64,000 nucleotides of DNA, taken from contig CAZWYF010000002.1 of the NCBI GenBank assembly GCA_964637835.1, forward strand, positions 84,614-148,613. The letters run 5' to 3'. Under the pieces are notes generated by a model. It was given only the letters and a program-made list of their open reading frames with translations, was not told where the DNA came from and did no database searches. This DNA is from an uncultured Fibrobacteraceae bacterium. Lineage in GTDB: Bacteria; Krumholzibacteriota; Krumholzibacteriia; LZORAL124-64-63. A program made the translations under genes and the position numbers. This document shows, one piece after another, positions 400-44,187 of the stretch. How positions within the stretch are numbered: position 1 is the stretch's first letter; every line of letters begins with the position of its first letter.

Positions 400-405
400 G
401 AGATC

Positions 406-6112: not shown

Positions 6113-6344
6113 TCCTGATTTCGCGGGGCCCGTAACCCGTTCTCGCGCGATGGGCTGCCATCACGAGGGGGCTTCCGGGGAACGGTTCGCAGCAGCGCCG
6201 GGCCACCGGTACGAAAATTGATCCACGGTTTCGTGAGGTTCACGATGTATGCTTGAGCGGTGCCCGCTGCCCGTTCCGCGGCGCGGCCGCGTGCAGCCTG
6301 CCTGCCACGCGCCGCCGCCCGTTTCCGTGCCGAGGAGGCCGACC

Positions 6345-15221: not shown

Positions 15222-15240
15222 GCTTCGATGCATCGATCGG

Positions 15241-15274
15241 AGAGGGCGGCCCCGGGCACGGGGTCGCCCTCTTT
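15241..15274 (+). terminator. Hairpin after the CBM lipoprotein gene
   Basis: AGAGGGCG-(gccccgggcacggggt)-CGCCCTCT followed by TT. The palindrome TCGATGCATCGA lies just upstream. Confidence 0.4.
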
Positions 15275-15354
15275 CGCACCAAGGCTATCATGTCCACAGA
15301 GACCCGACACCCGCGCCGCCACCACGGCCACGACCCGTCGCTGGAGGTTCTCCC

Positions 15355-18300: not shown

Positions 18301-18807
18301 GACCTGCCCCGTGGCACCTGGCTGCTGGGGGCGCCGCAGGCCCGCCTGCTCGCGCCCGCCGTCCTGCGGGCGCAGCCGCCGGAGCCTGGCCAGGTCTTCC
18401 AGCTCTTCCGTGACGGCGCCTGGTCCGCCCTGCCCACCACCGTGGCGGAGGATGGCACCCTCGAGGCGCACACGGCCGAGCTGGGCCTGATCCGCCTGGC
18501 GCCGGGGCAGGCCGTGCCGGTGGCCACGCGGCTGCTGGGCAACGCTCCCAATCCCTTCAACCCGCAGACCAGCATCCGCTTCGCGCTCGCCGCCGCCGAC
18601 GCCGGCGACCGCGTGCGCCTGCGCGTCTACGACGTGCGCGGCAAGCTGGTCCGCACCCTGGTCGACGGCGCGCTGCCCGCGGGCGAGCACGCCATCGTCT
18701 GGGACGGTCGTGACGGCCAGGGCCGCGCCGCGGCCTCCGGCGTCTACCTCTATCGACTCGAGACCGGCCGGCAGGCGCTCAGCGGGCGCATGCTGATGCT
18801 GAAGTGA
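15355..18807 (+). CDS. Secreted type-I pullulanase (GH13_14) with N-terminal CBM and a T9SS type-A tail
   Basis: Signal peptide 'LGVLALILPALPALAQS'. Pullulanase signature 'RNWGYDPYAY'. GH13 regions 'VVMDVVYNHT', 'GFRFDLMGLI', 'YGEPWGG', 'YISAHDNYT'. Tail 'NPFNPQTSIRFAL...VRLRVYDVRGKLVRTL...GVYLYRL'. Confidence 0.9.
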   Translation: MRKLGLLLGVLALILPALPALAQSDATLTIHYFRFDDDYLGWGLHLWNAVEEDGGTFIIEGQSYDWQNPLPPTGSDDYGVYWEVPIAYPENELGFIIHNGDVKDPGPDQFWSDYEAHPEIWILSGYTQIFTEPPNPDVRLMSATSDGEDTITLTLGRDADQLDAFSVLKDGTPVTVTSRTVTTPRTVLLELAEPIDITVLYEVADSVGENQVAVLHEFDDAEWAYDGEDLGFTYSPTETTFKLWSPVASAATVHIYDSPFPVDGEPVDSHQLIRSFTDPGVMEVTVAGDHKDRYYLYEMSVYGETYLTPDLYSIAMSGNSQRSQIIDLDETDPAGWDQDQWPDFPVTDSVVWEVHVRDLTAAPTWNGSEDNRHLFLGVVEPGTSHEGEPTGFDHILDLGVNTVQILPMYDFTSVNEYDPQSRNWGYDPYAYNVPEGSYSSDPDDGKVRIREMKQMIQAFHEAGIKVVMDVVYNHTHNVGPQGSLYDAMVPRYYYRLEPDGSYSNGSGVGNEVATEKLMARNFILQSVKYWVQEYRVDGFRFDLMGLIDTDLMATITEEVKAINPHAIIYGEPWGGYGADILTGKGDQRGLGFGCFNDNVRNAIRGSTDGTDPGYAMGIESDRPAVQDGLEAAIDDFTDGPEETINYISAHDNYTWWDKLDWRWNPTLPPPGHSEETLIRMNRFGISMVLLGQGIPFIHAGSEFLRTKRVGDPDDPSNDEESIRNSYNAGDDVNQLDWARRVQYDDVVEYYQGLVALRLARPEFRLTTQAQIEANQTFLTGLDGGAIAYTLADVTPDDDWGEILVIHNPSDQEVMVPLPAGQWAAVVDPQTAGTSVLASHVSPAADPLDLPAPPRGTMVLYQEAAPDLQLNLFQNPVLDRYLTVAVNALDTTIVHADVVINGEDLLLEQITPGSWLGRYTLSESGELVITVAAGDLVLTRTVSAWDLSGGASFTSRDGVLAVDVPAGARPGGWLVLADRAGRPDLPRGTWLLGAPQARLLAPAVLRAQPPEPGQVFQLFRDGAWSALPTTVAEDGTLEAHTAELGLIRLAPGQAVPVATRLLGNAPNPFNPQTSIRFALAAADAGDRVRLRVYDVRGKLVRTLVDGALPAGEHAIVWDGRDGQGRAAASGVYLYRLETGRQALSGRMLMLK

Positions 18808-19427: not shown

Positions 19428-19499
19428 CCGCGTCGACCGTCGTGGACGGGGGGCCTGCGGGCCCCCCATCGCGCCTGGCCACCATCCGGAGGCTCCTTC

Positions 19500-21164
19500 A
19501 TGCGCCGCGCCCCGCTCGCCGCCCTCGTCCTCGCGCTACTCTTGCTGCTGCCCGCCTGCTCGGACGACGACGACCCTCGCGGTCCCACCACGCCCGGCGG
19601 CGGCGGCGGCGAGATCGAGCAGCCCGGACCCACCTCCTGGTATCACGACAAGGTCTGGTACGAGGTCTTCGTGCGCAGCTTCCAGGACAGCGACGGCGAC
19701 GGGATCGGCGACCTGCAGGGCCTGATCTCGCGGCTGGACTACCTCAACGACGGCGACCCGTCCACCGACACCGACCTCGGCGTGACCGGCCTCTGGCTCA
19801 TGCCCATCGTCGAGTCGCCCAGCTACCACGGCTACGACGCCACGGACTACCGCACCGTCGAGCCCGATTACGGCACCAATGCCGACTTCCAGCAACTCAT
19901 CGCGGCGGCCGAGGCGCGGGGCATGACGGTGATCGTCGACTACGTCATGAACCACTGCTCCACCCAGCATCCGTGGTTCCAGGCCTCGGCACAGGGCGAT
20001 CCCGACTTCGCCGACTGGTTCCTCTGGCGCAGCGACAATCCGGGCTGGTCCCAGCCGTGGGGGGGCGGCAGCGTCTGGCACTCCGGCGCGCGCGGCTACT
20101 ACTACGGCGTCTTCTGGGGTGGCATGCCCGATCTGAACTATACCCACGCGCCCGTGGTCGCCGAGATGCTCGACACCGCCGACTGGTGGCTGCAGGACAT
20201 GGGCGCCCACGGCTTCCGACTCGACGCCGTGAAGTACCTCATCGAGGAGGGCAGCCGCCTGGAGGACACCGGCGCCACGCTGGCCTTCTGGGGGCGGTTC
20301 CGCGAGCACCTCGATCTCGTGGCCCCCGACGCCTTCGTGGTGGGCGAGGCCTGGGATCGCTCCACCGTCTCGGCCAGCTACGTGGATGCGGGCCTGCACA
20401 CGGTCTTCGAGTTCGACCTCGCCGACGCCATGATCCGCGCGGCCAACCAGGGCGACGCGCGTCCGGTCAACACCCAGCTGGACGTGGTGCAGGCGTCGTA
20501 CCCGTTCCTGACCCATGCCACCTTCCTGACCAACCACGACCAGCAGCGGGTCTTCTCCCAGCTCGACCAGGAGCCCGGCCGCAACCGGACCGCCGCCGCC
20601 CTGCTGCTCACCCTGCCGGGCGTGCCCTTCCTCTTCTATGGCGAGGAGGTGGGCATGATCAGCAGCTGGGTCCACGAGGACGTGCGCCGGCCCATGTCCT
20701 GGACCGGCGGCGCGGGGGCGGGCTTCACCACCGGCACGCCCTGGCAGGCGCCGGCGGCCAACCACGGGTCCTTCAACGTGCAGGCCATGCAGGCCGCCGA
20801 GGGCTCGCTCTGGCATCACTACCGCCGTCTGGTCCACGTGCGCAACGGTTCGCCCGCCCTGCGGCGCGGCACCTACCATCAGCTGGGCACCGGCACCAAT
20901 CAGCTGCTGGCGTTCCTGCGCCACCACGAGGCGCAGGCGGTGGTGGTCCTGCACAACTTCTCCGGCGGCAGCCTGGCCGGCTGGAGCCTGAGCACCGCGG
21001 CCAGTCAGCTCGCGCCAGGAGCGTACGCGGCCACCGACCTGGAGACCGGCGAGGAGCTCGCCGGGCTCACCGTGGCGGACAACGGCGCCTTCGCCGACTG
21101 GTCGCCCGTGGGCTTCGTCACCGGCCGTGGCGTCCGGTTCGTCGAGCTCGCGCCGGTGCGGTGA
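19500..21164 (+). CDS. GH13 alpha-amylase-family lipoprotein (alpha-amylase / alpha-glucosidase type)
   Basis: Lipobox 'LLLLLPAC' + 'SDDDDPRG'. GH13 regions I 'VIVDYVMNHCS', II 'GFRLDAVKYL', III 'VVGEAWD', IV 'FLTNHDQQR' are all intact. Confidence 0.88.
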   Translation: MRRAPLAALVLALLLLLPACSDDDDPRGPTTPGGGGGEIEQPGPTSWYHDKVWYEVFVRSFQDSDGDGIGDLQGLISRLDYLNDGDPSTDTDLGVTGLWLMPIVESPSYHGYDATDYRTVEPDYGTNADFQQLIAAAEARGMTVIVDYVMNHCSTQHPWFQASAQGDPDFADWFLWRSDNPGWSQPWGGGSVWHSGARGYYYGVFWGGMPDLNYTHAPVVAEMLDTADWWLQDMGAHGFRLDAVKYLIEEGSRLEDTGATLAFWGRFREHLDLVAPDAFVVGEAWDRSTVSASYVDAGLHTVFEFDLADAMIRAANQGDARPVNTQLDVVQASYPFLTHATFLTNHDQQRVFSQLDQEPGRNRTAAALLLTLPGVPFLFYGEEVGMISSWVHEDVRRPMSWTGGAGAGFTTGTPWQAPAANHGSFNVQAMQAAEGSLWHHYRRLVHVRNGSPALRRGTYHQLGTGTNQLLAFLRHHEAQAVVVLHNFSGGSLAGWSLSTAASQLAPGAYAATDLETGEELAGLTVADNGAFADWSPVGFVTGRGVRFVELAPVR

Positions 21165-21314: not shown

Positions 21315-21344
21315 TTGACGCATGTCGAACCCTATCCGTAATCT
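21315..21344 (+). promoter_or_regulatory. Second TTGACG-N18-TAATCT promoter-like element with overlapping palindrome
   Basis: TTGACG 21315-20, TAATCT 21339-44. Same spacing as the element at 14089. CGAC-tt-TGCGT-N7-ACGCA-t-GTCG inverted repeat overlaps the -35. Confidence 0.35.
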
Positions 21345-21456
21345 TCCGCGCTACGGTTCCTGCGTCCTGGGAGGAGTCCTGGACGTGCGCTGGCTGCCGC
21401 GGCTCCGGTTCGCTCCTCCCGCCCCGAGAGACCCGCTTTCCCATGGGGAGAACGAC

Positions 21457-23202
21457 ATGCGGAACTTGCTGCGGACGTCCCTGGTGGTCCTGACCCTGAT
21501 CGCGCTGGCCGCCGGCGCGCAGGCCCAGGTGCCCACCGCCAAGAACATCATCGTCTTCATCAGCGACGGCTGGGGCCAGTCCCAGCTCGACGCCACCGCC
21601 TACTGGAACGGTGAGCGCGCGAGCTACGAGAGCTGGGCCAGCACCCACATGAGCACCTACTCCTACGTCCGACCCTCCGACAACCCGCCCTACGGCGACG
21701 GCAGCTTCGAGGGCATCCACGGGTACGACCCCGCGCTGGCCTGGAGCGACTGGTGGTACCACCAGAACTTCGCCACCGACTCGGCCGCGGCCGGCACCGC
21801 CATGGCCACCGGCCAGAAGACCTACAACGGCGCCATCTGCTGGAGCGTCGATGATCAGCCCATCGAGAATTATTTCGAGTTCGCCGAGGCGGCCGGCAAG
21901 GCCACCGGTACGGTCACCAGCGTCCAGCTGAACCATGCCACGCCGGCGACTCACCGCGCCCACAATCCGGCTCGCGGCAACTACGCGGCCATCGCCCAGG
22001 AGATGATCGAGGACTCGGGACTGGACGTCATCATGGGCGCCGGTCATCCAAACTACGACCACGACGGCCAGTGGGATGCCGGTGATCCGACCGTCCCCGG
22101 CGACTGGCGGCACGTGGGTGGCCACGAGCTCTGGAACGAGCTCCTGGCCGGCACCGCCGGCGGCAGCGAGCCCTGGACCCTCATCGACCAGAAGGCCGAC
22201 TTCGAGGCGCTGGCCGACGGCACCCTGGTCCTCGATCGCGTCGTCGGCGTGGCCCAGGTGGCCAGCACCCTGCAGCACAACCGCGCGGGCTATCCGGACG
22301 ACAACGCGCCGGACGCCCCCTACACCGATCCCTTCGTGCCCAACGTGCCCACCCTGGCGACCATGACCGCCGGCGCGCTCAACGTCCTGGGCCAGGATCC
22401 CGACGGCTTCGTCGTGATGGTCGAGGGCGGCGCCGTGGACTGGTCCGGCCATGGCCGCGCCATGGAGCGCCTCATCGAGGAGCAGGACGATTTCAACGCG
22501 GCCGTCGAGGCGGCCATCGCCTGGGTCGAGGCCCACAGCAGCTGGGACGAGACCCTGATCATGGTCACCGGCGATCACGAGACCGGCGGCCTGTTCGGCC
22601 CCGGCGTCGACCCCGAGGACGAGAGCACCTGGTTCGCGCCCATCGTCGACAACGGTCCGGGCAACGTGCCAGGCTTCTATTACTACTCCGCCCCTGGTCA
22701 GGACTGGCAGAATCCCACCGGCTCCGCCGGCCACACCAACCTGCTGGTGCCCTTCTTCGTGCGCGGCGCCGGGGCCGAGGTCCTGCTCGGCCACGCCGAC
22801 GAGGTCGACCCGGTGGTGGGCAGCTACATCGACAACACCGAGGTCGCCCTGACCTGCTTCGATCTGATCTCCGGGACCGTGCCGGTGGAGAACCCCGACC
22901 TGCCCGGCGACGAGGTGCCCGTGGTCGCGCGGAGCCTGGAGCAGAACTACCCCAACCCGTTCAATCCCCAGACCACCATCGCCTTCGACCTGCCCCGCAG
23001 CGAGGCCGTGCGCCTGGAGATCGTCGACATGCAGGGCCGCCACGTGCGCACCCTGGTGGACGGGACCCGTGGGGCCGGACACCACACGGTGGTCTGGGAC
23101 GGAACCGACCGGACCGGCCGTCGCGTGGCCAGCGGCACCTACGTCTATCGCCTGAACACCGAGAGCCTGGTCCAGAGCAAGACCATGGCCCTGGTGAAGT
23201 AG
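21457..23202 (+). CDS. Secreted alkaline phosphatase (PhoA family) with a T9SS type-A tail
   Basis: Signal peptide 'VLTLIALAAGAQAQ'. Active-site block 'TDSAAAGTAMATGQKTYNGAI' (PhoA DSAAS..TG.KT). Tail 'NPFNPQTTIAFDLPRSEAVRLEIVDMQGRHVRTL...GTYVYRL'. ATG 21457 preceded by GGGGAG. Confidence 0.85.
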   Translation: MRNLLRTSLVVLTLIALAAGAQAQVPTAKNIIVFISDGWGQSQLDATAYWNGERASYESWASTHMSTYSYVRPSDNPPYGDGSFEGIHGYDPALAWSDWWYHQNFATDSAAAGTAMATGQKTYNGAICWSVDDQPIENYFEFAEAAGKATGTVTSVQLNHATPATHRAHNPARGNYAAIAQEMIEDSGLDVIMGAGHPNYDHDGQWDAGDPTVPGDWRHVGGHELWNELLAGTAGGSEPWTLIDQKADFEALADGTLVLDRVVGVAQVASTLQHNRAGYPDDNAPDAPYTDPFVPNVPTLATMTAGALNVLGQDPDGFVVMVEGGAVDWSGHGRAMERLIEEQDDFNAAVEAAIAWVEAHSSWDETLIMVTGDHETGGLFGPGVDPEDESTWFAPIVDNGPGNVPGFYYYSAPGQDWQNPTGSAGHTNLLVPFFVRGAGAEVLLGHADEVDPVVGSYIDNTEVALTCFDLISGTVPVENPDLPGDEVPVVARSLEQNYPNPFNPQTTIAFDLPRSEAVRLEIVDMQGRHVRTLVDGTRGAGHHTVVWDGTDRTGRRVASGTYVYRLNTESLVQSKTMALVK

Positions 23203-32877: not shown

Positions 32878-32982
32878 TCGACCTCTCGTCCAGATTTCTT
32901 TGCAACCTTCCCGGTGCGATCCGTATCTTCAGATACCCCCCGCGTTGACCATGAACTCCCTGACCGCTTCAGGAGGGACATC

Positions 32983-35900
32983 ATGGCGCGCAAGCTCTTG
33001 ATCGGATGGACCCTGGCGACCCTCGCGCTGGCCGGTGCCGCGGTTGCCGACGACGGAATCATGCCGGACCAGTTGCTGGACCGGCTCACGGCCCGCTCCA
33101 TGGCCCATCAGGGCCAGGTGGCCGCCACGACCGACCTGGCCAGGGCGTCGGGCGACACCATCTACCTGCTCGGTGGCCCCGACCGCCTCGACGGCCGCTT
33201 CGAGGACGCCAACGGCCAGCCGGACTGGCACGACTGGATCACGGTGGACTTCACCGACGCCGGCATGGACAATGCCTGGCACGTCCAGGACCAGTACGTC
33301 CTCTCGGGCAGCCACTCCATGATCTGCGCCGCGGACATCCCCCAGCCCGATGGCTCGGTCTGGGGCTACGGCAACAACTGGCGCATGACCCTGCTGCAGT
33401 CCCACACCGTGGACGACCCCTCCCAGACCAGCACCCTGCGCATCACCGGTACCCTGCGCGTGGACACCGAGCCGCAGTACGACTACGTCTACCTCCAGGT
33501 CCAGAAGGCGGGTACCTGGGTGGACATCGACGCCGAGGCCGTCTGGGACGGCGTCCAGGACGTCGGCTTCGACTTCTCCACCAGCTTCCGAGCCGGCGAT
33601 TACTCCGGCTCGGGCGACGATGAGATCCGCATCCGCTTCTACTTCGCGTCCGACAGCATGGCCTCCGATCAGGACGGGGATTACGACTCCGACGGCGCCT
33701 GCCTGCTGGACGACATCACCGTGGCGATCGACGGCGCGGTGGTCGCCTTCGACGATTTCGAGGACGGCACCAGCGGCAACTGGGTCGGCGAGGTGCTGCC
33801 GGGCGCCGGCGATTTCGCGGCGCTCTACGGCAATCTCCAGGACCTCGATCCCTGCCGGAGCAACAGCTCCATCCAGGTGGCGTTCGTCGATAACGGCATC
33901 GTGGTCCCCGGTACCGGTGGCACGCCGTGCATCACCTGGTGCTACGGCCCCGAGGGCTACATCGTCAACAACACCGGCGGCCTGCTCGGCCCCGAGAACC
34001 ACGTGGAGAACGGCATCGTCTCGCCACCGCTGCGGTGGCAGGAAGGCCATGACGCGGCCGAGTTGGCGCTGAGCCTCTTCGTGCACGAGCCCATGCACTC
34101 GACCTCCGGCGGCACCATGTTCATCTGGTGGGTGCGCAGCACCACCGCCGACGACCCGGCCATGCTCGAGCATGCCGAGTGGACCAGCAACTACACCCTC
34201 TGGTACGGCTCGCCCATCTACGTCAACCATGCGGCGGATCTGACCAGCCATCTCGAGCCCGGCCGCAAGTGGTTCCAGGTGCGGCTGGAGGTCTGGGAGG
34301 CCGGCTGGATCTTCGGCGTCGAGGGTTCCGACGGTACGCCGCACCCCTACCTCGACAACGTGCGGATCCGCAGCTATCCCTCGGGCGGCCCCGCCATCTC
34401 GCACAACGAGCTCTTCCTGGCCCAGTCCAGCTTCCCCGAGCACGGCGACATCGACTTCGGCAACCTCGGGGGCAACTCCATCCGTTTCGACGCCGCGCGC
34501 AACATCAGTCCCACCGCCCACCTGCGGAACGACCCCGGCGACTCCCTCTGGGTGGACGTGGTCCCGGTGCGCGAGGGCTCGACGCTGCCCCAGCTCCCGC
34601 AGATGGTGGTGCGCATGAAGGCCAACCCGCTGTTCGACGACGTGCGGGCGCTACCGCCAGGCTTCAGCCAGGACGGCGAGGTCATCACCGGCACGGTGGT
34701 CGGCGACTCGACCTACAACGGCAACACCGGCGAGCTGGTGGCCGACCGCTACAACTTCGACCTGCCGGACACCGGCTTCTTCTACCCCGGCGACGTGATC
34801 CACTACTACTTCGAGGCCTGGGACGACCGGAACGGCGACATCGGCCACACCATGCTCCCGGCCGACACCACCGGCTTCGCCAGCTTCGCGCACGACCTCG
34901 GCTACCCCAGCGACTTCATCTGCCGGGGCCTGCCCACGCTGTTCAGCGATGCCCCCGGCGATCAGCCGAAGATCCTGCTGTGGAACGACTTCGCGGACTA
35001 CGGCGGCGAGAACGAGTGGTACCATGCGCTGTCCGGCGCTGGCCTCGTCGAGGGCGTGGACTACGACATCTACTACACCATCTCGCCGGACGCGGGCGAG
35101 GGGAACGGCCTCGGCGGCCGCGCCACCAGCGCCGTGCTCGACGGCTACGACATCCTGCTCTACACCAGCGGCACGCTGTTCGTCTACACGCTGGGCGACG
35201 GCGATTTCGCGACCGATCCCTCCCAGGACATCCAGTTGCTCAACGCCTGGTTCGCCCGCGGGGGCAAGAAGGCGTTGTTCACCGGCGACGATCTGGTGAA
35301 CGACCTGATGGACGGCGGTTCGCTCGGCCAGGCGCTCGTCAACAACTACCTGGGCGTCCAGTTCTTCGACAACTCGCTCGTCGACTACATCGGCCGCCAG
35401 ACCGCGCCCACGGTGCGCACCTACTCCGGCAACGGCTTCCTGCCCAGCGTGGGCACCTGGATCGCGTATGGCGGCTGCCTCGGCATCAACACCTTCGACG
35501 CGGTGCAGACGGTGGGTTCGGCGCAGAGCCTCGCCGAGTTCACCGACGCCAACGGCAACGGCGGCGTGTACCCCTACACCGCCGCGGTCTACAACTACAA
35601 CGAGACCACCGACACCGAGGTGATCTACCTGCCCTACGACTTCATGTTCGTCTACAATGCGCCCGGCTACGTGCCGCCCGGGGGCCTGGAGGGGCTGCCC
35701 GCCCGTGCGGTCATGCTGCGCGACATCCTCAATGCCTTCGGCCAGCAGCTCGACGGCCCCATCGGCGTGGAGGACACGCCGGCCGTGCAGGCCGTGGATG
35801 TCATGGCCTATCCCAATCCCTTCAACCCGCAGACCACCCTGGCGCTCAGCCTGCCGCGCGCCGGTCACGTGAGCGTGAAGATCTTCAACGTGCGGGGCGA

Positions 35901-36063
35901 ACTGGTCCGCACGTTGCAGGACGGAGCGCTGACCGCTGGCCGACACGAGCTGCGCTGGGACGGCCGCGACACCGACGGGTCGCGGCAGGCCTCCGGCGTC
36001 TACTTCGCCGAGACCCGCGCCCTCGGACAGACCGAGGTCACGCGCATGGCCATGATCAAGTAA
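32983..36063 (+). CDS. Large secreted protein of unknown function (1027 aa) with a T9SS type-A tail
   Basis: AGGAGGGA RBS. Signal peptide 'LLIGWTLATLALAGAAVA'. Asp/Gly/Trp/Tyr-rich beta-type body. Tail 'YPNPFNPQTTLALSLPRAGHVSVKIFNVRGELVRTL...GVYFAETR'. One HExxH-like string 'HEPMH' whose context is not convincing. Confidence 0.6.
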   Translation: MARKLLIGWTLATLALAGAAVADDGIMPDQLLDRLTARSMAHQGQVAATTDLARASGDTIYLLGGPDRLDGRFEDANGQPDWHDWITVDFTDAGMDNAWHVQDQYVLSGSHSMICAADIPQPDGSVWGYGNNWRMTLLQSHTVDDPSQTSTLRITGTLRVDTEPQYDYVYLQVQKAGTWVDIDAEAVWDGVQDVGFDFSTSFRAGDYSGSGDDEIRIRFYFASDSMASDQDGDYDSDGACLLDDITVAIDGAVVAFDDFEDGTSGNWVGEVLPGAGDFAALYGNLQDLDPCRSNSSIQVAFVDNGIVVPGTGGTPCITWCYGPEGYIVNNTGGLLGPENHVENGIVSPPLRWQEGHDAAELALSLFVHEPMHSTSGGTMFIWWVRSTTADDPAMLEHAEWTSNYTLWYGSPIYVNHAADLTSHLEPGRKWFQVRLEVWEAGWIFGVEGSDGTPHPYLDNVRIRSYPSGGPAISHNELFLAQSSFPEHGDIDFGNLGGNSIRFDAARNISPTAHLRNDPGDSLWVDVVPVREGSTLPQLPQMVVRMKANPLFDDVRALPPGFSQDGEVITGTVVGDSTYNGNTGELVADRYNFDLPDTGFFYPGDVIHYYFEAWDDRNGDIGHTMLPADTTGFASFAHDLGYPSDFICRGLPTLFSDAPGDQPKILLWNDFADYGGENEWYHALSGAGLVEGVDYDIYYTISPDAGEGNGLGGRATSAVLDGYDILLYTSGTLFVYTLGDGDFATDPSQDIQLLNAWFARGGKKALFTGDDLVNDLMDGGSLGQALVNNYLGVQFFDNSLVDYIGRQTAPTVRTYSGNGFLPSVGTWIAYGGCLGINTFDAVQTVGSAQSLAEFTDANGNGGVYPYTAAVYNYNETTDTEVIYLPYDFMFVYNAPGYVPPGGLEGLPARAVMLRDILNAFGQQLDGPIGVEDTPAVQAVDVMAYPNPFNPQTTLALSLPRAGHVSVKIFNVRGELVRTLQDGALTAGRHELRWDGRDTDGSRQASGVYFAETRALGQTEVTRMAMIK

Positions 36064-36064
36064 C

Positions 36065-36119
36065 GTCCGCCAGCGGACGCCGTCCCCCGAGGGCCCCGGG
36101 TCGTCGCGACCCGGGGCCC
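36065..36119 (+). terminator. Two perfect GC-rich hairpins immediately after the large cargo gene
   Basis: CGTCCGC-cag-GCGGACG, then GGGCCCCGGGTCG-tcg-CGACCCGGGGCCC (13-bp perfect stem). Confidence 0.45.
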
Positions 36120-36145
36120 GGTTCATGGAGCGGGCCGGGGCGCCC

Positions 36146-36186
36146 GGCGAGGCTGGCGAGCCGGGCGAGGCTGGCGAGCCGGGCGG
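36146..36186. repeat. 18-bp tandem direct repeat (2.3 copies) in a non-coding region
   Basis: GGCGAGGCTGGCGAGCCG x2 followed by GGCGGCG. Confidence 0.7.
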
Positions 36187-36821
36187 CGATGACCATGGCG
36201 GGGGGCCGAGGTCGGCCGGCACGGAAGACCTGGCGGGAGGAGATCCGGGGGGAAGAGATCCGGTGGGGGGTGTTCCGTCGGTGGTGAGCCAGGCTGGCGC
36301 CTGGAGGAGGTCGAGTCTCGTGGCCGCGAGGGTCGATCCGTCCTCCGAGGCGCTTCACCCGGTCGCAGAAGCGATCCGTTCTGTTCTGATTGTTCGCCAC
36401 CCGGGACGTTGCAAGCGGAGTGCCCGTTGCGAGTCGCCGTTCAATATTCTCAAGTCGTTCAAATACAATGACATGTGGCTGCACCGGCCGCCACCTCGCG
36501 CCGCGGGGACGCGGGGGTGTCAACGCCGTTGATACCCCCGGGGCTGAGCTTGTAACCTGCAGTGATATAATAACATGTGCGATAAACAAAGTTTCTGCCC
36601 GGAGGCCGCCCGCTGGAACCCGTTGCGAGAACGCTGATTCCAGGGCCGGCACGGCGACGGGGCCCCCCGGGGGGCCCCGTCCGCTCGCTGTCCGCTCGTT
36701 CCCTGGGATCCGGCCGCGGGGGAAAAGCCGGTGGCGGTCGCGGATCCGGCTTGTGTTACACTCGCCGGCCGTGTTTGTTCCAGCCGGTCTTCCGTCGCCC
36801 GTCCTCCGGGGAGATGCTGCC

Positions 36822-37775
36822 GTGTCCGAGCTCCGCCATGACGTCCTGCACCAGACCTGGGTGGTCCTGGCTCCCGGCCGGGGCGACCGCCCGCGGGACG
36901 TCCAGCTGCGGACCGAGCCGGCCGCCGCCGGTCCCTGCCCGTTCTGCCCCGGGCAGGAGGCGCAGACGCCTGCCGAGGTCCTGGCCACCGGCCGGCCAGA
37001 CGGCGTGCCGGCCGACCACCCGCCCTGGCGGGTGCGCGTGTTTCCCAACCGCTACCCGGCGGTGACCGGGGCGGCGGGCCGGCACGAGGTGGTGGTGCTC
37101 TCGCCCGACCACGAGCGCGGCCTGGCCGACCTCACCGGCGAGGAGGCGGCCGAGGTCCTCGCCGCGGTGCGGACGCGGATGGCGGAGCTGGAGAGACGGC
37201 CGGACCTGGCGGCGGTGACCTTCTTCCTCAACTCGGGGGCCGGCGCCGGCGCCAGCCTCAGCCATCCGCACGGGCAATTGCTGGCCACGCCGGCGGTGCC
37301 GGCGGTGCTGCGTGCCGAGCTGGGCGCCCTGGCCGCCTGGCGCCGGGACCGGGGGGAATGCCTGCTCTGCGCCGCGCCGGCAGCCGCCGACGTGGTGGCG
37401 GCCGGGCCGCTGGCCCTGGCGTTCGCCCCCCGGGCGAGCCGCTTCGCCTGGGAGACCCTGCTGATGCCGCGACGCCACGAGGCGCGCTTCACCGCCGCCA
37501 CCGACGCGGAGCTCGGCGCGGTGGCCAGCCTGCTGGTCCAGCTGGCGGCCGCGCTGCGCGTCGCGGCCGGTGATCCCGCTTACAATCTGGTCTTGCACAC
37601 CGCCCCGCCCGGGAGCGAGGATTTCCACTGGCACCTGGAGCTGATGCCGCGGCTGGCGCCGCTGGCCGGCTTCGAGGCGGGCACGGGGTTCTTCATCAAC
37701 CCGGTGGATCCGTCCCGGGCCGCCGCCGCCCTGCGGGCCCAGCTACCCGCGACCCCAGCGAGGACCGACCCATGA
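36822..37775 (+). CDS. GalT-like HIT-family nucleotidyltransferase (galactose-1-phosphate uridylyltransferase / ADP-glucose phosphorylase family)
   Basis: Zn-site 'CPFCPGQE'. Active-site 'SHPHGQLLATP' (HxHxQ). 'RVRVFPNRYPAV'. GTG start at 36822 after CCGGGGAG. ATGA overlap with glgA. The in-frame upstream extension to 36390 looks like non-coding translation. Confidence 0.7.
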   Translation: MSELRHDVLHQTWVVLAPGRGDRPRDVQLRTEPAAAGPCPFCPGQEAQTPAEVLATGRPDGVPADHPPWRVRVFPNRYPAVTGAAGRHEVVVLSPDHERGLADLTGEEAAEVLAAVRTRMAELERRPDLAAVTFFLNSGAGAGASLSHPHGQLLATPAVPAVLRAELGALAAWRRDRGECLLCAAPAAADVVAAGPLALAFAPRASRFAWETLLMPRRHEARFTAATDAELGAVASLLVQLAAALRVAAGDPAYNLVLHTAPPGSEDFHWHLELMPRLAPLAGFEAGTGFFINPVDPSRAAAALRAQLPATPARTDP

Positions 37776-39247
37776 GGATCCTGATGATCACCGCGGAGAT
37801 GGCGCCGCTGGTGAAGATCGGCGGCCTGGCCGACGTCACCGGGGCGCTGCCGGCCGCCCTGGCCGCCCACGGCCACGAGGTGCGGGTGGTGCTGCCGCTC
37901 TACGGCCATCTCGATCGCCGGGCGCAGGACCTGCAACCGCGCCCGGAGACCGGGCCGTTGCCCCTGCGCGTGGGGCAGGCCGTGCACACGGTACGCTTCT
38001 GGTCCTGGCCGGCGGCCCCGGCGGGGGTCCAGGTGGACCTGGTGGAGTGCCGGGACCTGTTCGGTCGTCCCGGGGTCTATGCCGATCCCGCAGGCGCGGT
38101 GTTCGGCGACACGCTCGAGCGGGCCAGCTGCCTCTGCGCCGCGGCCCTGGCCCTGCCCGAGCTGCTCGACTGGCCGGTGGACGTGGTCCACGCCCACGAC
38201 GTGCACGCCGCGCTGGCCCCCCACTACCGCGCCCACTGGTACGCCGGCCGCGAGCTGCCCGGCCCGGCGGCCACCATGCTGACCATCCACAACCTGGCCC
38301 ACCAGCAGCTCGAGCCGGCGGGCGCCATCGTCCGCGTGGGGCTGCCCCGCGAGCTGGCCGAGTATCCCGGTCCCTTCGAGTTCCACGGCCACTGCAACCT
38401 GCTGAAGGCCGGCATCCTGGCCGCCGACCACGTCAACACCGTCAGCCCCACCTACGCGCGGGAGGTGGTGGCCGACGCCACCGCCGGCTGTGGCCTGCAC
38501 GGCGTGCTCGCCGCGCGCGGCGAGGCCTTCGACGGCATCGTCAACGGTGTGGACACCCGCACCTGGGACCCCTCGCGCGACCGCCACCTGCCGGCGCGCT
38601 ACCACGCCCAGGACCTGGTGGGCAAGTCCGTCTGCCGGTCGCGACTGCTCCGTGACGCCGGCCTGGAGGAGGATCAGCGCCCGCTGCTGGGCGTGGTCAG
38701 CCGCCTGGTGCCGCAGAAGGGCATCGACCTGGTGTGCGACCTGCTGGATCGCCTGGTGGACGGGGGCTTCTCCCTGCTGGTCCTGGGGACGGGCGACGCG
38801 CCCCTGCACGAGCAGCTCGCCGCCGCGGCGGCCCGGCATCCGGGGCGGGTGGCCTTCCGTCCGGAGTTCAGCGAGTCGTGGGCCCATCGCATCTACGCCG
38901 GCAGCGACCTCTTCCTCATGCCCAGCCGCTTCGAGCCCTGCGGCCTGGGCCAGCTCTACGCCCTGCGCTACGGGACCTTGCCCGTGGTGCGCCGCACCGG
39001 CGGCCTGGCCGACACCATCGCCGACGTCGACACCGCCGGTGGCACCGGCTTCGTGTTCGACGAGCCCACGCCCGACGCCCTCTGGCAGGCCCTGGTGCGC
39101 GCCCGCGCCACCCGGGAGGACACCGTCCGCTGGCGCGCCATGCAGCGCCGCGGCATGCAGCGCGACGTCTCCTGGGAGATCAGCGCCGCCGCCTACGCCG
39201 CGCGCTACCGCCGGCTGGTCCCCGTCGCCGCGGAGGTGGCGCCATGA
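37772..39247 (+). CDS. glgA: Glycogen synthase (ADP-glucose type, GT5)
   Basis: 'MRILMITAEMAPLVKIGGLADVTGALP' canonical GlgA N-terminus. C-terminal 'SRFEPCGL' block. Confidence 0.92.
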   Translation: MRILMITAEMAPLVKIGGLADVTGALPAALAAHGHEVRVVLPLYGHLDRRAQDLQPRPETGPLPLRVGQAVHTVRFWSWPAAPAGVQVDLVECRDLFGRPGVYADPAGAVFGDTLERASCLCAAALALPELLDWPVDVVHAHDVHAALAPHYRAHWYAGRELPGPAATMLTIHNLAHQQLEPAGAIVRVGLPRELAEYPGPFEFHGHCNLLKAGILAADHVNTVSPTYAREVVADATAGCGLHGVLAARGEAFDGIVNGVDTRTWDPSRDRHLPARYHAQDLVGKSVCRSRLLRDAGLEEDQRPLLGVVSRLVPQKGIDLVCDLLDRLVDGGFSLLVLGTGDAPLHEQLAAAAARHPGRVAFRPEFSESWAHRIYAGSDLFLMPSRFEPCGLGQLYALRYGTLPVVRRTGGLADTIADVDTAGGTGFVFDEPTPDALWQALVRARATREDTVRWRAMQRRGMQRDVSWEISAAAYAARYRRLVPVAAEVAP

Positions 39248-40998
39248 ATGATCCCGTGACCCTCGATGAGCTCGCCCACCGCAGCCTGGCCGCCACCCAG
39301 ACGCCCCTGCTGGTGGTGGACGCCCGCTGGCGCGTGCTCCTGGCCAGCACCGGCGCCGGCCGTCTCTACGCCGAGGAGCCGGCGGACCTGGTGGGCCGAT
39401 CCCTGGAGGAGCTGGTCACCAGCACCGACCCGTTCGCAGGGTGCGACGACCCCGGCTGTCCCGACCGCGGGTGCGTCCGGCAGCTGGACCTGTGCGTGGG
39501 CGACGCCACCGTGGCCGCCGAGCTGCAGTGCGAGGCCTTCCGCGACGGCCAGGGACGGCTCCATCGCCTCCTGCTGATCCACGACGCCAGCGAGCTGGCC
39601 GCCCGCGACGCCATGCGTGCCGCCCGCCTGGCCAAGCTCAACCTGCTGAACCAGGTCTCGGAGGCCCTGTACGGCGCGCAGCTCTCCTTGCCCCAGGTGC
39701 TCGAGTCGGTGCTCATCGCCATGACCGCCGGCCAGGGCCTGCGCTTCAACCGCGCCTTCCTGCTGCTGGTGGACGAGCGCACCCGTTGCTTGCGCGGGGA
39801 GATCGCCATCGGCCCGAGCAGCCGCGAGGAGGCCGAGCGCATCTGGCGCGACCTGGCCGATCAGCCCACCGACCTCTACGAGATGATGACCAGCTACGAC
39901 CTCTCCCTCCGGGAGACCGACGTGGCGGTCAACAACATCGTCCGGCAGCTCTCCGTCTCCCTGGACGAGGGCCAGCACGTGCTCATCCGCGCGCTGCACG
40001 GTCGCCGCACGGTCCTGGTCACCGAGACCGACGACGGTCCGGGCACCGCCGACGTCCGTCGCTGGCTCGGCGTGGGCCGCTTCGCCGTGGCGCCCCTGGC
40101 CACCCGCCGCGGCGCCATCGGCGTGCTCATCGCCGACAATGCCATCAGCGGGCTGGAGATCACGGAGATGGACCTGGAGTTCCTCCAGCTCTTCGCCAAC
40201 CAGTCGGCCAACGCCATCGAGTCCTCCCGGCTGACCGAGGAGCTGGCGCGCAAGGTCCTGGACCTGCGCAAGGCCCAGCAGAAGCAGAAGGAGGACCAGC
40301 AGACCCTGCTGCGCATGGAGCGCCTGTCGGTCATGGGCGAGACCTCGGCCATCGTGGCCCACGAGCTGCGCAATCCCCTGGTGGCCATCGGCGGTTTCGC
40401 CCGGGCGCTGCTGCGCAGCCTGGAGGAGGACGACGCCAACCGGCAATACGCCCAGATCATCTCCGAGGAGGTGGCGCGCCTCGAGCGCATCATCCACGAC
40501 CTCCTCGACTTCATCCGGCCCCAGAAGATGATGCGTCGCAGCGTGGCTCCGGATACCATCGTGCAAGAAGTGGCACGAAAGATGCAGCCGACCCTGGACC
40601 ACGGGTCGGTGGCACTGCACCTCGACCTGCGGGCCGGGCCGGCGGAGGTCCACTGCCATCCCGGCGAGATCCAGCAGGTACTGCAGAACCTGGTGTTGAA
40701 CGCCGTCCAGGCCCAGCCGGACGGCGGGCGCATCCGCCTGGCGAGCCGGTCGCTCGAGGGCGGCGTGCTCATCCAGGTGGCGGATGACGGACCGGGGCTG
40801 GCCAGGGACGTGGCGGACAAGATGTTCTCGCCGTTCTTCACCACCAAGTCCGCGGGCTCGGGTCTGGGACTGACCATCTGCGCCCAGATCATCAAGGCCC
40901 ACGGCGGGGTGCTGCGGGGCGAGAACCTCGCCGACGGCGGCGCCAGCTTCAGCTTCATCCTGCCGCGACCAAAGCTGGAACCCGACCAGGGCGAGTAG
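39244..40998 (+). CDS. Cytoplasmic sensor histidine kinase (Cys-rich PAS-like region, GAF, HisKA, HATPase_c) embedded in the glycogen operon
   Basis: ATGA overlap with the glgA stop. No TM segment. 'FAGCDDPGCPDRGCVRQLDLCVGD...LQC' (5 Cys within 33 aa). GAF 'GRFAVAPLATRRGAIGVLIADN'. H-box 'VAHELRNPLVAIGGFARAL'. G-boxes 'VADDGPGL', 'GSGLGLTIC'. Confidence 0.85.
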   Translation: MNDPVTLDELAHRSLAATQTPLLVVDARWRVLLASTGAGRLYAEEPADLVGRSLEELVTSTDPFAGCDDPGCPDRGCVRQLDLCVGDATVAAELQCEAFRDGQGRLHRLLLIHDASELAARDAMRAARLAKLNLLNQVSEALYGAQLSLPQVLESVLIAMTAGQGLRFNRAFLLLVDERTRCLRGEIAIGPSSREEAERIWRDLADQPTDLYEMMTSYDLSLRETDVAVNNIVRQLSVSLDEGQHVLIRALHGRRTVLVTETDDGPGTADVRRWLGVGRFAVAPLATRRGAIGVLIADNAISGLEITEMDLEFLQLFANQSANAIESSRLTEELARKVLDLRKAQQKQKEDQQTLLRMERLSVMGETSAIVAHELRNPLVAIGGFARALLRSLEEDDANRQYAQIISEEVARLERIIHDLLDFIRPQKMMRRSVAPDTIVQEVARKMQPTLDHGSVALHLDLRAGPAEVHCHPGEIQQVLQNLVLNAVQAQPDGGRIRLASRSLEGGVLIQVADDGPGLARDVADKMFSPFFTTKSAGSGLGLTICAQIIKAHGGVLRGENLADGGASFSFILPRPKLEPDQGE

Positions 40999-41076
40999 AG
41001 TTTTCCTGGAACCGCAGCCGGCCATTTGCTAGCCTGCGAGTGGAGATCCTGGAACCCGCACGAAGGAGGGTGTTCC

Positions 41077-41445
41077 ATGGCCAAGGTCCTCATCGTCGAC
41101 GACGAACCGCATCTGCGCCTGCTCTACGAGACGGAACTCCGTCGAGCCGGCTACGAGACCATGACCGCGAGCAATGCCGAGCAGGGACTCGAGTACGTCC
41201 AGACCATGCAGCCGGATCTGGTGATCCTGGACATCCGCATGGCGGGGATGGATGGAATTGAGGCCTTGCAAAGGATCCTGGATATGGATAATACCATACC
41301 GGTGATCCTGAACACCGCCTACTCGAGCTATCGCGAGAACTACCTCACCTGGTCGGCCGACGCGTACATCACCAAGTCGTCGGATACCACGGCCCTGCTC
41401 GAGAAGGTCAAGGAACTGCTGCACGCGAAGACGGTCGAGAACTGA
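41077..41445 (+). CDS. Single-domain response regulator (REC only)
   Basis: GAAGGAGGG RBS. 'VLIVDDEPH', 'LVILDIRMAGMDG', 'VILNTAYS', 'YITKSS'. Confidence 0.85.
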   Translation: MAKVLIVDDEPHLRLLYETELRRAGYETMTASNAEQGLEYVQTMQPDLVILDIRMAGMDGIEALQRILDMDNTIPVILNTAYSSYRENYLTWSADAYITKSSDTTALLEKVKELLHAKTVEN

Positions 41446-41468
41446 GCCCGGGTTCCGGCCTCGCGTGG

Positions 41469-42755
41469 ATGGCGAGCCCGCGGGCGCCGGGAGCATGGCC
41501 GGTGGATATTCTCGAACGCATACGTCGCACGCTGACCATCGTCCTGGCCGGCGGGCAGGGCGAACGCCTGTACCCGCTGACCAAGGACCGTTCCAAGCCC
41601 TCGGTCCCCTTCGGCGGGAACTACCGCATCATCGATTTCACCCTGTCCAACTGCTTCAACTCGGGCCTGCGGCGCATCTACGTGCTGACCCAGTACAAGA
41701 GCTACAGCCTGGACAAGCACCTGCAGCGCGGCTGGAACATCTTCAACTACGAGGCGGACGAGTTCCTCTACCGTATCCCCCCGCAGCATCGCGTGGGCAC
41801 CAAGTGGTACGAGGGCACCGCCGACGCCATCTACCACAACATCTATCTGCTGGAGAAGGACAAGCCGGAGCACGTCCTGGTCCTCTCGGGCGACCACGTC
41901 TACAAGATGGACTACGGGGACTTCATGACCTTCCACCTCGGCCACGGCGCGCCCTTCTCCCTGTGCGCGGCGGTGGTTCCCCGCGAGGGCGCCCATCACT
42001 TCGGCATCCTCGAGGTGGACGAGGACTGGCGGGTGATCGGCTACGAGGAGAAGCCGCCCAACCCCAAGACCATCCCCGGCGATCCCGAGCACTGCCTGGT
42101 CAACATGGGTGTCTACCTGGTGGACACCGAGTGCCTGGTCAAGGAGCTCTGCCACGACTCGCGGCGTACCGACAGCCACCACGATTTCGGCAAGAACATC
42201 ATCCCGCGGCTGGTCCAGCACGGCGAGGTCTTCGCCTACCCGTTCCGTGACGCCGGGAGTCGCGAACCCCTCTACTGGCGCGACATCGGGACCCTGGACA
42301 GCTTCTATGCGGCCGCCATGGACCTGCTCTCGCGCCGGCCGCCCCTGGACCTCTACGACCGCGACTGGCCGTTCCGGGCCTGGCAGCCGCCGGTCCCCCC
42401 GGCCAAGTCGGTGCACAGCTTCAACGAGGACGAGCCGCAACCCGGCATCCTGGCCAACTCCATCATCGGCGGCGGCTCGATCATCTCCGGCGCCCGCGTC
42501 GAGAAGTCCATCCTGCACCGCGGCGTGAAGGTGAACTCCTACGCCAAGGTCTCCGGGAGCATCCTCATGGACGGCGTGCAGGTGGGCCGTTACGCCGACC
42601 TGCACCGGGTGATCTGCGACAAGGACGTGGTGATCCCCGAGGGGCTGGTGATCGGCCGCGACCTGGAGCAGGACCGCGAGCTGTTCACCGTCACCCAGGA
42701 CGGTATCGTGGTGATCCCCAAGGAGATGGACCTCTCCGGCCTCGGCGGCGGTTGA
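41469..42755 (+). CDS. glgC: Glucose-1-phosphate adenylyltransferase
   Basis: 'IVLAGGQGERLYPLTKDRSKPSVPFGGNYRIIDFTLSNCFNSGLRRIYVLTQYKSYSL'. C-terminal left-handed beta-helix 'GGGSIISGARVEKSILHRGVKV'. Alternative GTG start at 41502. Confidence 0.92.
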   Translation: MASPRAPGAWPVDILERIRRTLTIVLAGGQGERLYPLTKDRSKPSVPFGGNYRIIDFTLSNCFNSGLRRIYVLTQYKSYSLDKHLQRGWNIFNYEADEFLYRIPPQHRVGTKWYEGTADAIYHNIYLLEKDKPEHVLVLSGDHVYKMDYGDFMTFHLGHGAPFSLCAAVVPREGAHHFGILEVDEDWRVIGYEEKPPNPKTIPGDPEHCLVNMGVYLVDTECLVKELCHDSRRTDSHHDFGKNIIPRLVQHGEVFAYPFRDAGSREPLYWRDIGTLDSFYAAAMDLLSRRPPLDLYDRDWPFRAWQPPVPPAKSVHSFNEDEPQPGILANSIIGGGSIISGARVEKSILHRGVKVNSYAKVSGSILMDGVQVGRYADLHRVICDKDVVIPEGLVIGRDLEQDRELFTVTQDGIVVIPKEMDLSGLGGG

Positions 42756-42855
42756 CCGCGGGCCCCGGCGGGATCACATTGTCCAGCGATCATCGTCCAG
42801 CATCCGGGGCAGCCAGGCGGCTGCCCCGCCCGGACCCCCGCGATCCCGAGGCCCC

Positions 42856-43263
42856 ATGACCGATCGACAGAATCCCCGCGACCGCGCTGGCCAGGGCGCC
42901 GACGAGTTCGACCTCACGGCGTCCGAGGTGGAGATCGCCCTGATCTGCCTGCGCTTCTTCCGTGGCGACTGGGACATGTACCTGGACTACCTCCAGGGTT
43001 CACGCGTCACGCCCGAACAGCGTCGCCGCGACCTGCCGCTGGTCGAATCCCTCCGCGACCGCGACCGCCGGACCGAGTTCCTCACCGCCTTCCTCGAGGA
43101 CGAGGTGGTGGCCCTGGCCCAGCGGCTCGGCTTCGACCAGCTCCTGAGGATCTGGGAGCACGCCCTCGAGCTCGACCCCGAGTCCGAGCCGTTTCCCGAG
43201 TTCCACGGCGAGGGCGCGGCCGAGGACGACGGGGGGGACGATGCGCCGACGACGTTGCACTGA
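42856..43263 (+). CDS. Hypothetical acidic protein (135 aa), possibly the last gene of the glg operon
   Basis: No recognisable motifs. C-terminus 'EGAAEDDGGDDAPTTLH'. Same strand, 100 bp after glgC. Confidence 0.4.
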   Translation: MTDRQNPRDRAGQGADEFDLTASEVEIALICLRFFRGDWDMYLDYLQGSRVTPEQRRRDLPLVESLRDRDRRTEFLTAFLEDEVVALAQRLGFDQLLRIWEHALELDPESEPFPEFHGEGAAEDDGGDDAPTTLH

Positions 43264-43395
43264 GGCGGTGGGGTGAGGGGCCATGGTGGCGAAGGTCCTC
43301 GCGAAGGGTGGGCCTGGACGGCCCACCCTTCTGCTGCGGAGTTTCGCCATCAGGACGGAGCGACCCTACCCCCCAGGCGAGCGCCGGGAGCCGGA

Positions 43396-44187
43396 TCAGA
43401 GGACGTAGAACTCCGGCCGGCGATCGGCGAGGAGGTGATTGCGCGGCGTGATCCGGTGGTCGCAGAGGGCGAGGTCGAGCTCGGCGACGGCGGCCTCGGG
43501 ACGATCCTCGCTGCCGAGGACCAGGCGCTCGGCGGTGGGCGCGCAGATGGTGCTGCGACCGATGAAGTCCAGGGCCTCGGCGGTGCGGTGCTCGCGGCCG
43601 ACGCGATTGGCGGTCAGGGTGAAGACGCGGTTCTCCAGGGCGCGGATGCGCATGGCGTCCGGGCAGTGGGGCAGCACCAGGTTCGAGGGGTGGGCGACCA
43701 CGCGGGCACCGCGGCGGCCCAGGGTGCCGGCGGCCTCGGGGAACTGCCAGTCGAAGCAGATCATCAGGCCCACGGTGGTGCCGCAGGCCGCGAACACGGG
43801 CAGGCCCAGGTCGCCCGGGTCGAAGACCAGCTTCTCGTCCCAGAACAGGTGGAGCTTGCGGTAACGGTCGATGCGGCCATCGGGCTGGACCAGGACGGCG
43901 CTGTTGTAGAGGCGCTGGCCGTGGGCCTCGGCCAGGCCGGCCACCAGGGTGGTGCCGGTGCGCGCGGCGTGGTCGCGGAGCGCCGCGCAGCTGGGGCCAT
44001 CGGGGATGGGCTCGGCCAGTCGCTTCAGTTCCTCGCGATCGCGGAACTGGTAGCCGGTGGCGCAGAGCTCCGGCAGGACGGCCAGGTCGCAATGGTCGGG
44101 CACCAGGGCGAGGGCGGCCGCCAGGTTGGCGGCGGGCTCGCCGAAGACGGGGTCGGTCTGGATCACGGCGGCACGCAGGACGGTCAT
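43396..44187 (-). CDS. Carbon-nitrogen hydrolase (nitrilase superfamily)
   Basis: Catalytic triad blocks 'VLPELCATGY' (Glu), 'YRKLHLF' (Lys), 'GLMICFDWQFPE' (Cys). ATG at 44187 with GGAGGAG RBS. 4-bp overlap with the upstream GT4 gene. Confidence 0.8.
   Translation of the reverse strand: MTVLRAAVIQTDPVFGEPAANLAAALALVPDHCDLAVLPELCATGYQFRDREELKRLAEPIPDGPSCAALRDHAARTGTTLVAGLAEAHGQRLYNSAVLVQPDGRIDRYRKLHLFWDEKLVFDPGDLGLPVFAACGTTVGLMICFDWQFPEAAGTLGRRGARVVAHPSNLVLPHCPDAMRIRALENRVFTLTANRVGREHRTAEALDFIGRSTICAPTAERLVLGSEDRPEAAVAELDLALCDHRITPRNHLLADRRPEFYVL

Follow-up and report, generated by a model that had tools for sequence, protein, structure and literature searches.

Why does a cluster of bacterial glycogen-synthesis genes carry a two-component system between glgA and glgC, and on what could that system act? 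The locus that raises this question lies in a 64,000-nt stretch of Krumholzibacteriota DNA (the window, to which the coordinates given below refer), where six co-directional genes occupy 36.8-43.3 kb of the + strand: a GalT/HIT-like gene, glgA, a histidine kinase gene, the gene of a receiver-only response regulator (REC), glgC and a small open reading frame, ORF135. The answer favoured here, with a probability of roughly 0.5, is that they make up a conserved regulatory module of ADP-glucose and glycogen metabolism in which REC acts on the ADP-glucose enzymes. The arrangement probably represents a hitherto undescribed switch that controls bacterial glycogen storage.

Bacterial glycogen control relies on an allosteric GlgC and on global regulators, CsrA, ppGpp and PhoPQ among them, which act from elsewhere in the genome. 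The known two-component inputs to glycogen genes are unlinked and work through DNA-binding regulators, as exemplified by PhoP-PhoQ in Escherichia coli and BfpR in Francisella (PMC7082314). A literature search turned up no account of a kinase/receiver pair placed within a glgA-glgC cluster, nor did it yield anything on how glycogen is regulated in Krumholzibacteriota or on a receiver-only protein that acts on ADP-glucose pyrophosphorylase. The components of the locus are all of known kinds, and it is their conserved combination that is new. Its genes are the following:

36822..37775, + strand: GalT/HIT-family nucleotidyltransferase, probably ADP-glucose phosphorylase-like, with a GTG start (Pfam and PDB matches)
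37772..39247, + strand: glgA, ADP-glucose-type glycogen synthase (NCBIfam, above cutoff)
39244..40998, + strand: soluble PAS-GAF-HisKA-HATPase sensor histidine kinase of 584 amino acids (Pfam, AlphaFold model)
41077..41445, + strand: receiver-only response regulator, TrrA-like, of 122 amino acids (PF00072)
41502..42755, + strand: glgC, glucose-1-phosphate adenylyltransferase, with a GTG start and an alternative ATG at 41469 (NCBIfam, above cutoff)
42856..43263, + strand: ORF135, small conserved protein, a clade-specific accessory gene lacking a Pfam or NCBIfam match

The order from the GalT-like gene through glgA, kinase and REC to glgC had been described in a first-pass annotation of this DNA, and both the open reading frames and their domains bear it out. 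The two ATGA stop/start overlaps listed there can be read in the sequence: CCATGAGG at 37772 joins the stop of the GalT-like gene to the start of glgA, and CCATGAAT at 39244 joins the glgA stop to the kinase start. The kinase-REC spacer measures 78 bp, as had been claimed. The 23-bp gap reported between REC and glgC holds only with the ATG at 41469. A GTG at 41502, favoured by the gene call on an identical contig and by homologues, is preferred instead; the 56-bp gap that it leaves matches the mean of about 55 bp found for 26 REC-glgC spacers (range about 22-68 bp).

Conservation of the gene order

The kinase has hundreds of close relatives, and those that bear a name belong to Candidatus Krumholzibacteria or Krumholzibacteriota. 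In a scan that covered each GTDB species by one genome, 25 loci of the kinase orthogroup were recovered, and their synteny was surveyed by tblastn with the six window proteins. Kinase, REC and glgC follow one another in the same order and orientation at every one of these species-representative Krumholzibacteriota loci (25/25). The gene directly upstream is glgA wherever the locus reaches that far, with the exception of L003 and L004, which come from one species, and the GalT-like gene leads the cluster in most loci, not all. At the exceptional locus (L003, 6837-8001; likewise L004) glgA is cleanly missing and 135 bp separate the GalT-like gene from the kinase, with REC, glgC and the small open reading frame kept. 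The GalT-glgA and glgA-kinase junctions are overlapping or very short in most loci of the phylum; the tight junction of glgA with the kinase, pointed out for the window alone, is thus widespread in the phylum, and in several loci (L001, L005, L016, L026) it takes the same form of a 4-nt overlap. In L017 (4350-7550, JADGEP010000125.1) the glgA stop TAA is replaced by AAG when compared to its sister L015, and GlgA and kinase are read as one frame of 1066 amino acids. This apparent fusion is either real or an assembly error, in a genome covered only 3x.

The succession glgA-kinase-REC-glgC also recurs in Acidobacteriota. Distant kinases were taken from a library clustered at 50% identity, in which Krumholzibacteriota are represented by one full-length sequence (676 bits); the next relatives are 30-43% identical, score at most 367 bits, and have in common the GAF-DHp-catalytic part, their N-termini being varied. 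In a Candidatus Polarisedimenticolaceae genome (Acidobacteriota, locus L128) the order is PFK-GalT-glgA-GAF kinase-REC-glgC, with every junction overlapping. Two further loci have GalT-glgA-kinase-REC-glgC: L042 and L045, the latter with a Rho that shares a cluster (90% or more) with the Rho of an Acidobacteriota genome. Metagenomic loci show other permutations, namely kinase-REC-glgC-GalT, GalT-kinase-REC-glgC, GalT-glgA-kinase-REC followed by unrelated genes, and kinase-REC-GH57-GH57 branching enzyme-GalT, and L046 has GH57-GalT-GH57 branching enzyme-kinase-REC-glgC. At least 15 of the 23 distinct kinase-REC loci from outside Krumholzibacteriota carry glycogen or alpha-glucan genes and several others are cut by contig ends, in a sample biased by the choice of glycogen-linked kinases as seeds for the scan.

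Conservation at 25 of 25 species-representative loci, together with recurrence in distant lineages, places the arrangement far beyond chance. The gene order that the first-pass annotation had singled out in one stretch of DNA is therefore strongly upheld as a property of the whole phylum and beyond it, and the comparison of sequences indicates that selection keeps the signalling pair inside glycogen clusters across at least two phyla.

Some loci deserve separate mention. In L046 (817-6013) and L050 (3915-8877), GH57 enzymes, amylopullulanase- or glucanotransferase-like and branching enzyme, replace glgA beside kinase and REC. Relatives of the kinase and of the TrrA-like receiver are found in flagellar/MCP/FapA and PilZ/CsrA/FliW clusters (L043, 6001-8136; L044, 6001-8274), and the signalling pair appears to be wired to motility-type neighbourhoods in those lineages. 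A Nitrospinaceae candidate (L032) was discarded as a coincidence: its glgC and the gene of an unrelated hybrid kinase are 4 kb apart, with opposite-strand genes between them.

The signalling pair and the ADP-glucose enzymes

The kinase matches the Pfam domains GAF, HisKA (1.7e-14) and HATPase_c (7e-24), and its PAS matches stay below the Pfam threshold. An AlphaFold model, built with 18 orthologues and with a predicted local distance difference test score of 78, comprises a PAS-like fold (residues 1-114), a linker helix, the GAF domain (149-298), the DHp helices (308-424) and the catalytic domain (432-574). H373, which lies in the H-box HELRNPL, is invariant in the 18 orthologues, and so are the N, G1 and G2 boxes, with N482/N486, D514-G516-G518 and G538-G540-G542. 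The protein was described as cytoplasmic from the outset, and it is indeed soluble, with no membrane segment and a highest 19-residue Kyte-Doolittle mean of 1.16. Its best solved relative is ThkA (3A0R_A, 1.9e-38), in a match that spans the DHp and catalytic part only.

REC has PF00072 (3.2e-27) as the sole domain reaching the Pfam cutoff, and its acidic pocket (D8, D9, D52), T80 and K100 are invariant among 22 orthologues. TrrA is its best solved relative (3A0U/3A0R_B, 1.3e-24), and Spo0F, CheY and DivK are also found among its solved relatives. That it consists of a receiver alone could be extended to every lineage examined, where the protein has 115-142 amino acids and belongs to the TrrA-like single-domain group. 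Compared with the window proteins, REC has the highest median identity (79%), followed by GlgC (69%), the kinase (57%), GlgA (56%) and the GalT-like protein (42%), which makes REC the most constrained component of the cluster. Receivers of glycogen-linked loci in other lineages are 52-55% identical to it and those from motility-type clusters 38-42%, and the stretch LN(T/S)AYSxY(K/R)xxFxSWxADxYVxKS is common to both groups. Judged by their sequences, kinase and REC are an intact two-component pair of the ThkA/TrrA type.

The ThkA/TrrA system of Thermotoga maritima (TM1359/TM1360; structures 3A0R and 3A0U) resembles the window pair in that it joins a soluble HisKA-type kinase to a single-domain receiver of about 120 amino acids; the window kinase is likewise cytoplasmic, its receiver-only partner is encoded immediately downstream, and the best PDB matches of both proteins come together in the 3A0R complex. 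The window kinase differs by having a GAF domain between PAS and DHp, whereas in the ThkA crystal structure, obtained with a fragment of 349 amino acids, PAS directly precedes DHp, and by being encoded inside a glycogen cluster. To our knowledge, the output of ThkA/TrrA has not been established, although the class is well known structurally. CheY, DivK and Spo0F are also receiver-only proteins that make phosphorylation-dependent protein contacts, but the context of the window REC is carbohydrate storage and not motility, cell cycle or sporulation.

The enzymes encoded next to the pair are those of the ADP-glucose pathway, as both GlgC and GlgA exceed the curated NCBIfam thresholds. GlgA scores 497.8 bits with TIGR02095 (cutoff 328.45) and 468.7 bits, also above cutoff, with NF001899; GlgC scores 531.7 bits with NF001947 (cutoff 470) and 448.5 bits with TIGR02091 (cutoff 424.9), is colinear with the E. 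coli enzyme (5L6S, 1e-115) and keeps the equivalent of the activator residue Lys39. The cluster thus shares with E. coli glgBXCAP a bona fide GlgC, colinear with its counterpart, and a bona fide GlgA. It differs from classical glycogen operons in that glgA precedes glgC, kinase and receiver lie between them, and a gene resembling those of GalT and ADP-glucose phosphorylase leads the series.

The product of this first gene matches GalP_UDP_transf, DUF4921 and HIT (PF01087, PF16268, PF01230), and CPFCPG and HPHGQ motifs are present in its translation. Its previous designation as GalT-like stands as far as the HIT/GalT family is concerned, but it is not a standard GalT: with the Leloir GalT models it scores 84.6 bits (NF008724, cutoff 448) and 60.3 bits (TIGR00209, cutoff 102.1), and it is closer to the plant ADP-glucose phosphorylase. 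Its best PDB match is Arabidopsis At5g18200 (1Z84/2H39, 5.8e-46), with E. coli GalT reaching only 7e-14. At5g18200, which is described as an ADP-glucose phosphorylase (preprint 10.64898/2026.09.13.751320), is the closest solved relative and likewise a class I GalT-like HIT enzyme with a zinc site and an HxHxQ motif. The activity of the bacterial protein, in contrast, is a prediction, and a match to 6K5Z (9.3e-31), deposited as a galactose-1-phosphate uridylyltransferase, makes substrate specificity unreadable from sequence alone. The first gene probably encodes an ADP-glucose phosphorylase-like enzyme, which could split ADP-glucose with phosphate or make it from ADP. The three enzymes of the cluster would then all act on ADP-glucose, which GlgC makes, GlgA uses and the HIT enzyme could split or make.

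ORF135 (135 amino acids) has no counterpart among the Pfam or NCBIfam families. Its homologues, encoded after glgC and in the same direction, are limited to one sub-clade of Krumholzibacteriota; the protein has an invariant FRGxWDxYLD stretch and a conserved C-terminal His. Apparent homologues of 141 amino acids in other loci look like antisense artefacts and were set aside.

Transcription signals

The elements that may govern expression of the cluster are listed below.

36754..36762, + strand: TGTTACACT, candidate extended -10 of a cluster promoter, P1, 59 nt upstream of the first gene
41027..41035, + strand: TGCTAGCCT, candidate extended -10 of an internal promoter, P2, in the kinase-REC spacer (motif conservation)
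41063..41069, + strand: AAGGAGG, strong Shine-Dalgarno sequence for REC (read from the sequence)
42806..42827, + strand: GC-rich hairpin with a 9-bp stem, GGGGCAGCC/GGCTGCCCC, and no T tract, in the glgC-ORF135 spacer
43303..43331: 12-bp GC-rich hairpin, candidate end of the transcription unit, between the convergent ORF135 and CN_hydrolase genes

The spacer between kinase and REC is the only consistently long gap of the cluster in Krumholzibacteriota (57-163 bp). All 26 of these spacers contain TAnnnT, 41-125 nt upstream of the REC start, and 14 of them contain the extended form TGnTAnnnT, which 2000 shuffles produced in 1.6 spacers on average and never in more than 7. The extended form was found in none of 26 REC-glgC spacers and in none of 100 kinase coding segments, which served as controls; where it is present, a hexamer resembling CTGGCA often precedes it by about 18 nt. 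In 24 of 25 related loci, the REC start has a Shine-Dalgarno core of the AAGGAGG type no more than 20 nt away. An internal promoter for REC and glgC at 41027-41035 is therefore likely, as far as conserved motifs can tell, and it would give these two genes their own, probably higher, expression, with read-through from upstream being possible. Loci of the Acidobacteriota type have no such spacer, as their kinase and REC genes share about 23 nt.

P1 is a weaker candidate. In 7 of 21 loci a motif of its type precedes the first gene by 59-112 nt, 3.3 being expected from shuffles, which offers weak support for a promoter of the whole cluster.

The supposition that the cluster is transcribed as a single unit is only in part sustained. 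No convincing terminator lies inside it, the only + strand terminator-like match within the cluster in a terminator scan falling inside the glgA coding region, but the -10-like element conserved in every kinase-REC spacer suggests two units, the GalT-like gene with glgA and kinase on the one hand, and REC with glgC on the other. Such a promoter would not separate the signalling genes from the glg genes; it likely pairs the kinase with glgA and REC with glgC. The two units would be nested, REC-glgC (and ORF135) being expressed from the internal promoter with a strong ribosome-binding site. The two hairpins downstream of glgC, at 42806-42827 and 43303-43331, may be terminators or RNA-stabilising structures; the second also lacks a T tract and was not reported by the consensus terminator scan.

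An Rfam scan of 35900-43500 gave only a sub-threshold match to an archaeal snoRNA and no known RNA element. A leader RNA upstream of REC was considered and rejected: a hairpin occurs in many loci, but no common structure could be aligned. The 760-bp intergenic region ahead of the cluster (36064-36821) is unusually long, in a genome of 71% G+C, and its equivalent in L001 has only about 160 bp. It includes an AT-rich island at about 36430-36600, which contains TGATATAAT (36563-36571), and a short tandem GGCGAGGCTGGCGAGCC repeat near 36140-36185.

What the kinase may sense and what the receiver may control

The proposed model starts with the cytoplasmic kinase encoded in the glycogen cluster, which would read an intracellular signal, most probably through its GAF domain, and would then phosphorylate the ThkA/TrrA-type receiver. 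Lacking any domain for DNA binding or catalysis, REC would have to work through contacts with other proteins that depend on its phosphorylation. Its neighbours GlgC, GlgA and the ADP-glucose phosphorylase-like enzyme would be the most parsimonious targets, and the switch would tune glycogen synthesis at the level of the enzymes. The pairing of the kinase with glgA (tight junctions, possible fusion) and that of REC with glgC (shared sub-unit) are suggestive. A more detailed version of the model, in which phosphorylated REC binds GlgC and/or the ADP-glucose phosphorylase-like enzyme, with the kinase possibly docked to GlgA, and switches between making and dismantling ADP-glucose, is tentative and more doubtful than the module as a whole.

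As for the signal, a cysteine cluster in the kinase had been read as a sign that a redox or energy cue is sensed. According to this explanation, the CxxxxCxxxxC of the PAS region would bind a metal or an Fe-S cluster, or form disulfides, and so gate the kinase. The window protein has C67, C72, C77 and C84, with C96 nearby; the first four are present in its closest relatives (87% identity), and C96 is nearly invariant among orthologues. Those four residues, however, are lost in most orthologues of the same phylum, the CxxxxCxxxxC pattern being confined to the closest relatives, and they lie in the PAS region, which is the most variable part of the kinase and is wholly absent from the Acidobacteriota orthologue of L128, despite its identical gene order. 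Moreover, no haem or Fe-S family match was found for the kinase in Pfam or NCBIfam. The inference thus fails as a property of the family: the cluster is ruled out as a conserved sensor, not being kept among orthologues, and redox gating is highly improbable, the least likely of the explanations considered. The conserved sensor, as the alignments indicate, is the GAF domain, which has long invariant stretches, e.g., TAGQGLRFNRAFLLL and AIGPS..EA.RIW. The same motif is present in relatives of the kinase that have no glycogen linkage, so that the sensed signal is probably a general intracellular one. When the kinase model was submitted to a fold search, the matches were generic histidine kinases, phytochromes and NifL, which are uninformative on the GAF ligand.

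Several observations weigh against a receiver that acts on the ADP-glucose enzymes. Flagellar or PilZ/CsrA/FliW clusters also harbour related pairs, which have this GAF motif and this REC hallmark, and the pair is therefore not intrinsically a glycogen system. No glg gene is universally adjacent, as some lineages have GalT-glgA-kinase-REC without glgC and one has GH57 enzymes, so that the target of REC is not deducible from synteny. GlgC, compared with that of E. coli, is a canonical enzyme that lacks any lineage-specific insertion usable as a docking site. In addition, the consensus scan scored no canonical sigma-70 site, and the promoter is a motif inference. The first of these points would agree with a general sensor of carbon or energy status with targets across the cell, the position among the glg genes being due to co-expression or historical linkage. 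GAF motif and REC hallmark are indeed common to relatives in motility, PilZ and CsrA/FliW clusters, and the kinase belongs to a large family, with 7868 cluster representatives at E<1e-30. Yet the linkage survives extensive rearrangement, through several permutations of gene order and in at least two phyla, which is hard to explain without selection for a shared function, and overlapping reading frames tie the pair to the glg genes. A purely general sensor is for these reasons unlikely.

It could also be argued that REC is an intermediate of a phosphorelay or a phosphate sink, whose real output is unlinked (an Hpt protein with a DNA-binding regulator, or another effector) and controls the transcription of glycogen genes and possibly of many others. 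Receiver-only proteins are often relay elements, and Spo0F is among the best solved relatives of REC; a fully canonical GlgC that keeps its allosteric Lys, and a synteny that singles out no one enzyme partner, would be expected in such a case. On the other hand, none of the lineages examined has a conserved gene for an Hpt protein or a DNA-binding regulator within the cluster or beside it. ORF135 was considered as the Hpt protein of such a relay and was ruled out, since none of its internal histidines is conserved and only one sub-clade has it. A local role also agrees with the very strong conservation of REC and with its constant place ahead of glgC, and the relay is regarded as possible but rather doubtful. 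The preferred reading continues to be that of a module in which REC acts on the enzymes of the cluster.

A dedicated kinase and receiver-only regulator in the cluster, conserved across phyla, would add a new layer of control to glycogen metabolism, would connect the ADP-glucose node with an intracellular cue perceived by a GAF domain, and would give a physiological context to the ThkA/TrrA class of soluble pairs. If REC controls the enzymes directly, this would be the first two-component system that regulates glycogen synthesis at the enzyme level and not through transcription, and such a switch would then occur widely, in Krumholzibacteriota, in Acidobacteriota and in further uncultured lineages. 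The proteins involved are all small and soluble, and the hypothesis is thus testable with synthetic genes in spite of the uncultured hosts.

Other genes of the window can be briefly noted. An alpha-amylase gene (19428-21164) adjoins that of a pullulanase, which places genes for the breakdown of external alpha-glucan about 18 kb upstream of the glycogen cluster. Four large proteins (6237-9401, 15184-18807, 21319-23202 and 32914-36063) have a C-terminal sorting domain of the FlgD_ig/type IX secretion type; they are a papain-like protease with a beta-helix, a pullulanase, an alkaline phosphatase and a protein of 1049 amino acids with no other domain. A second soluble signalling protein, encoded at 400-3438, has its domains in the unusual order HisKA, HATPase_c, GAF and HD_5 (HD-GYP-like).

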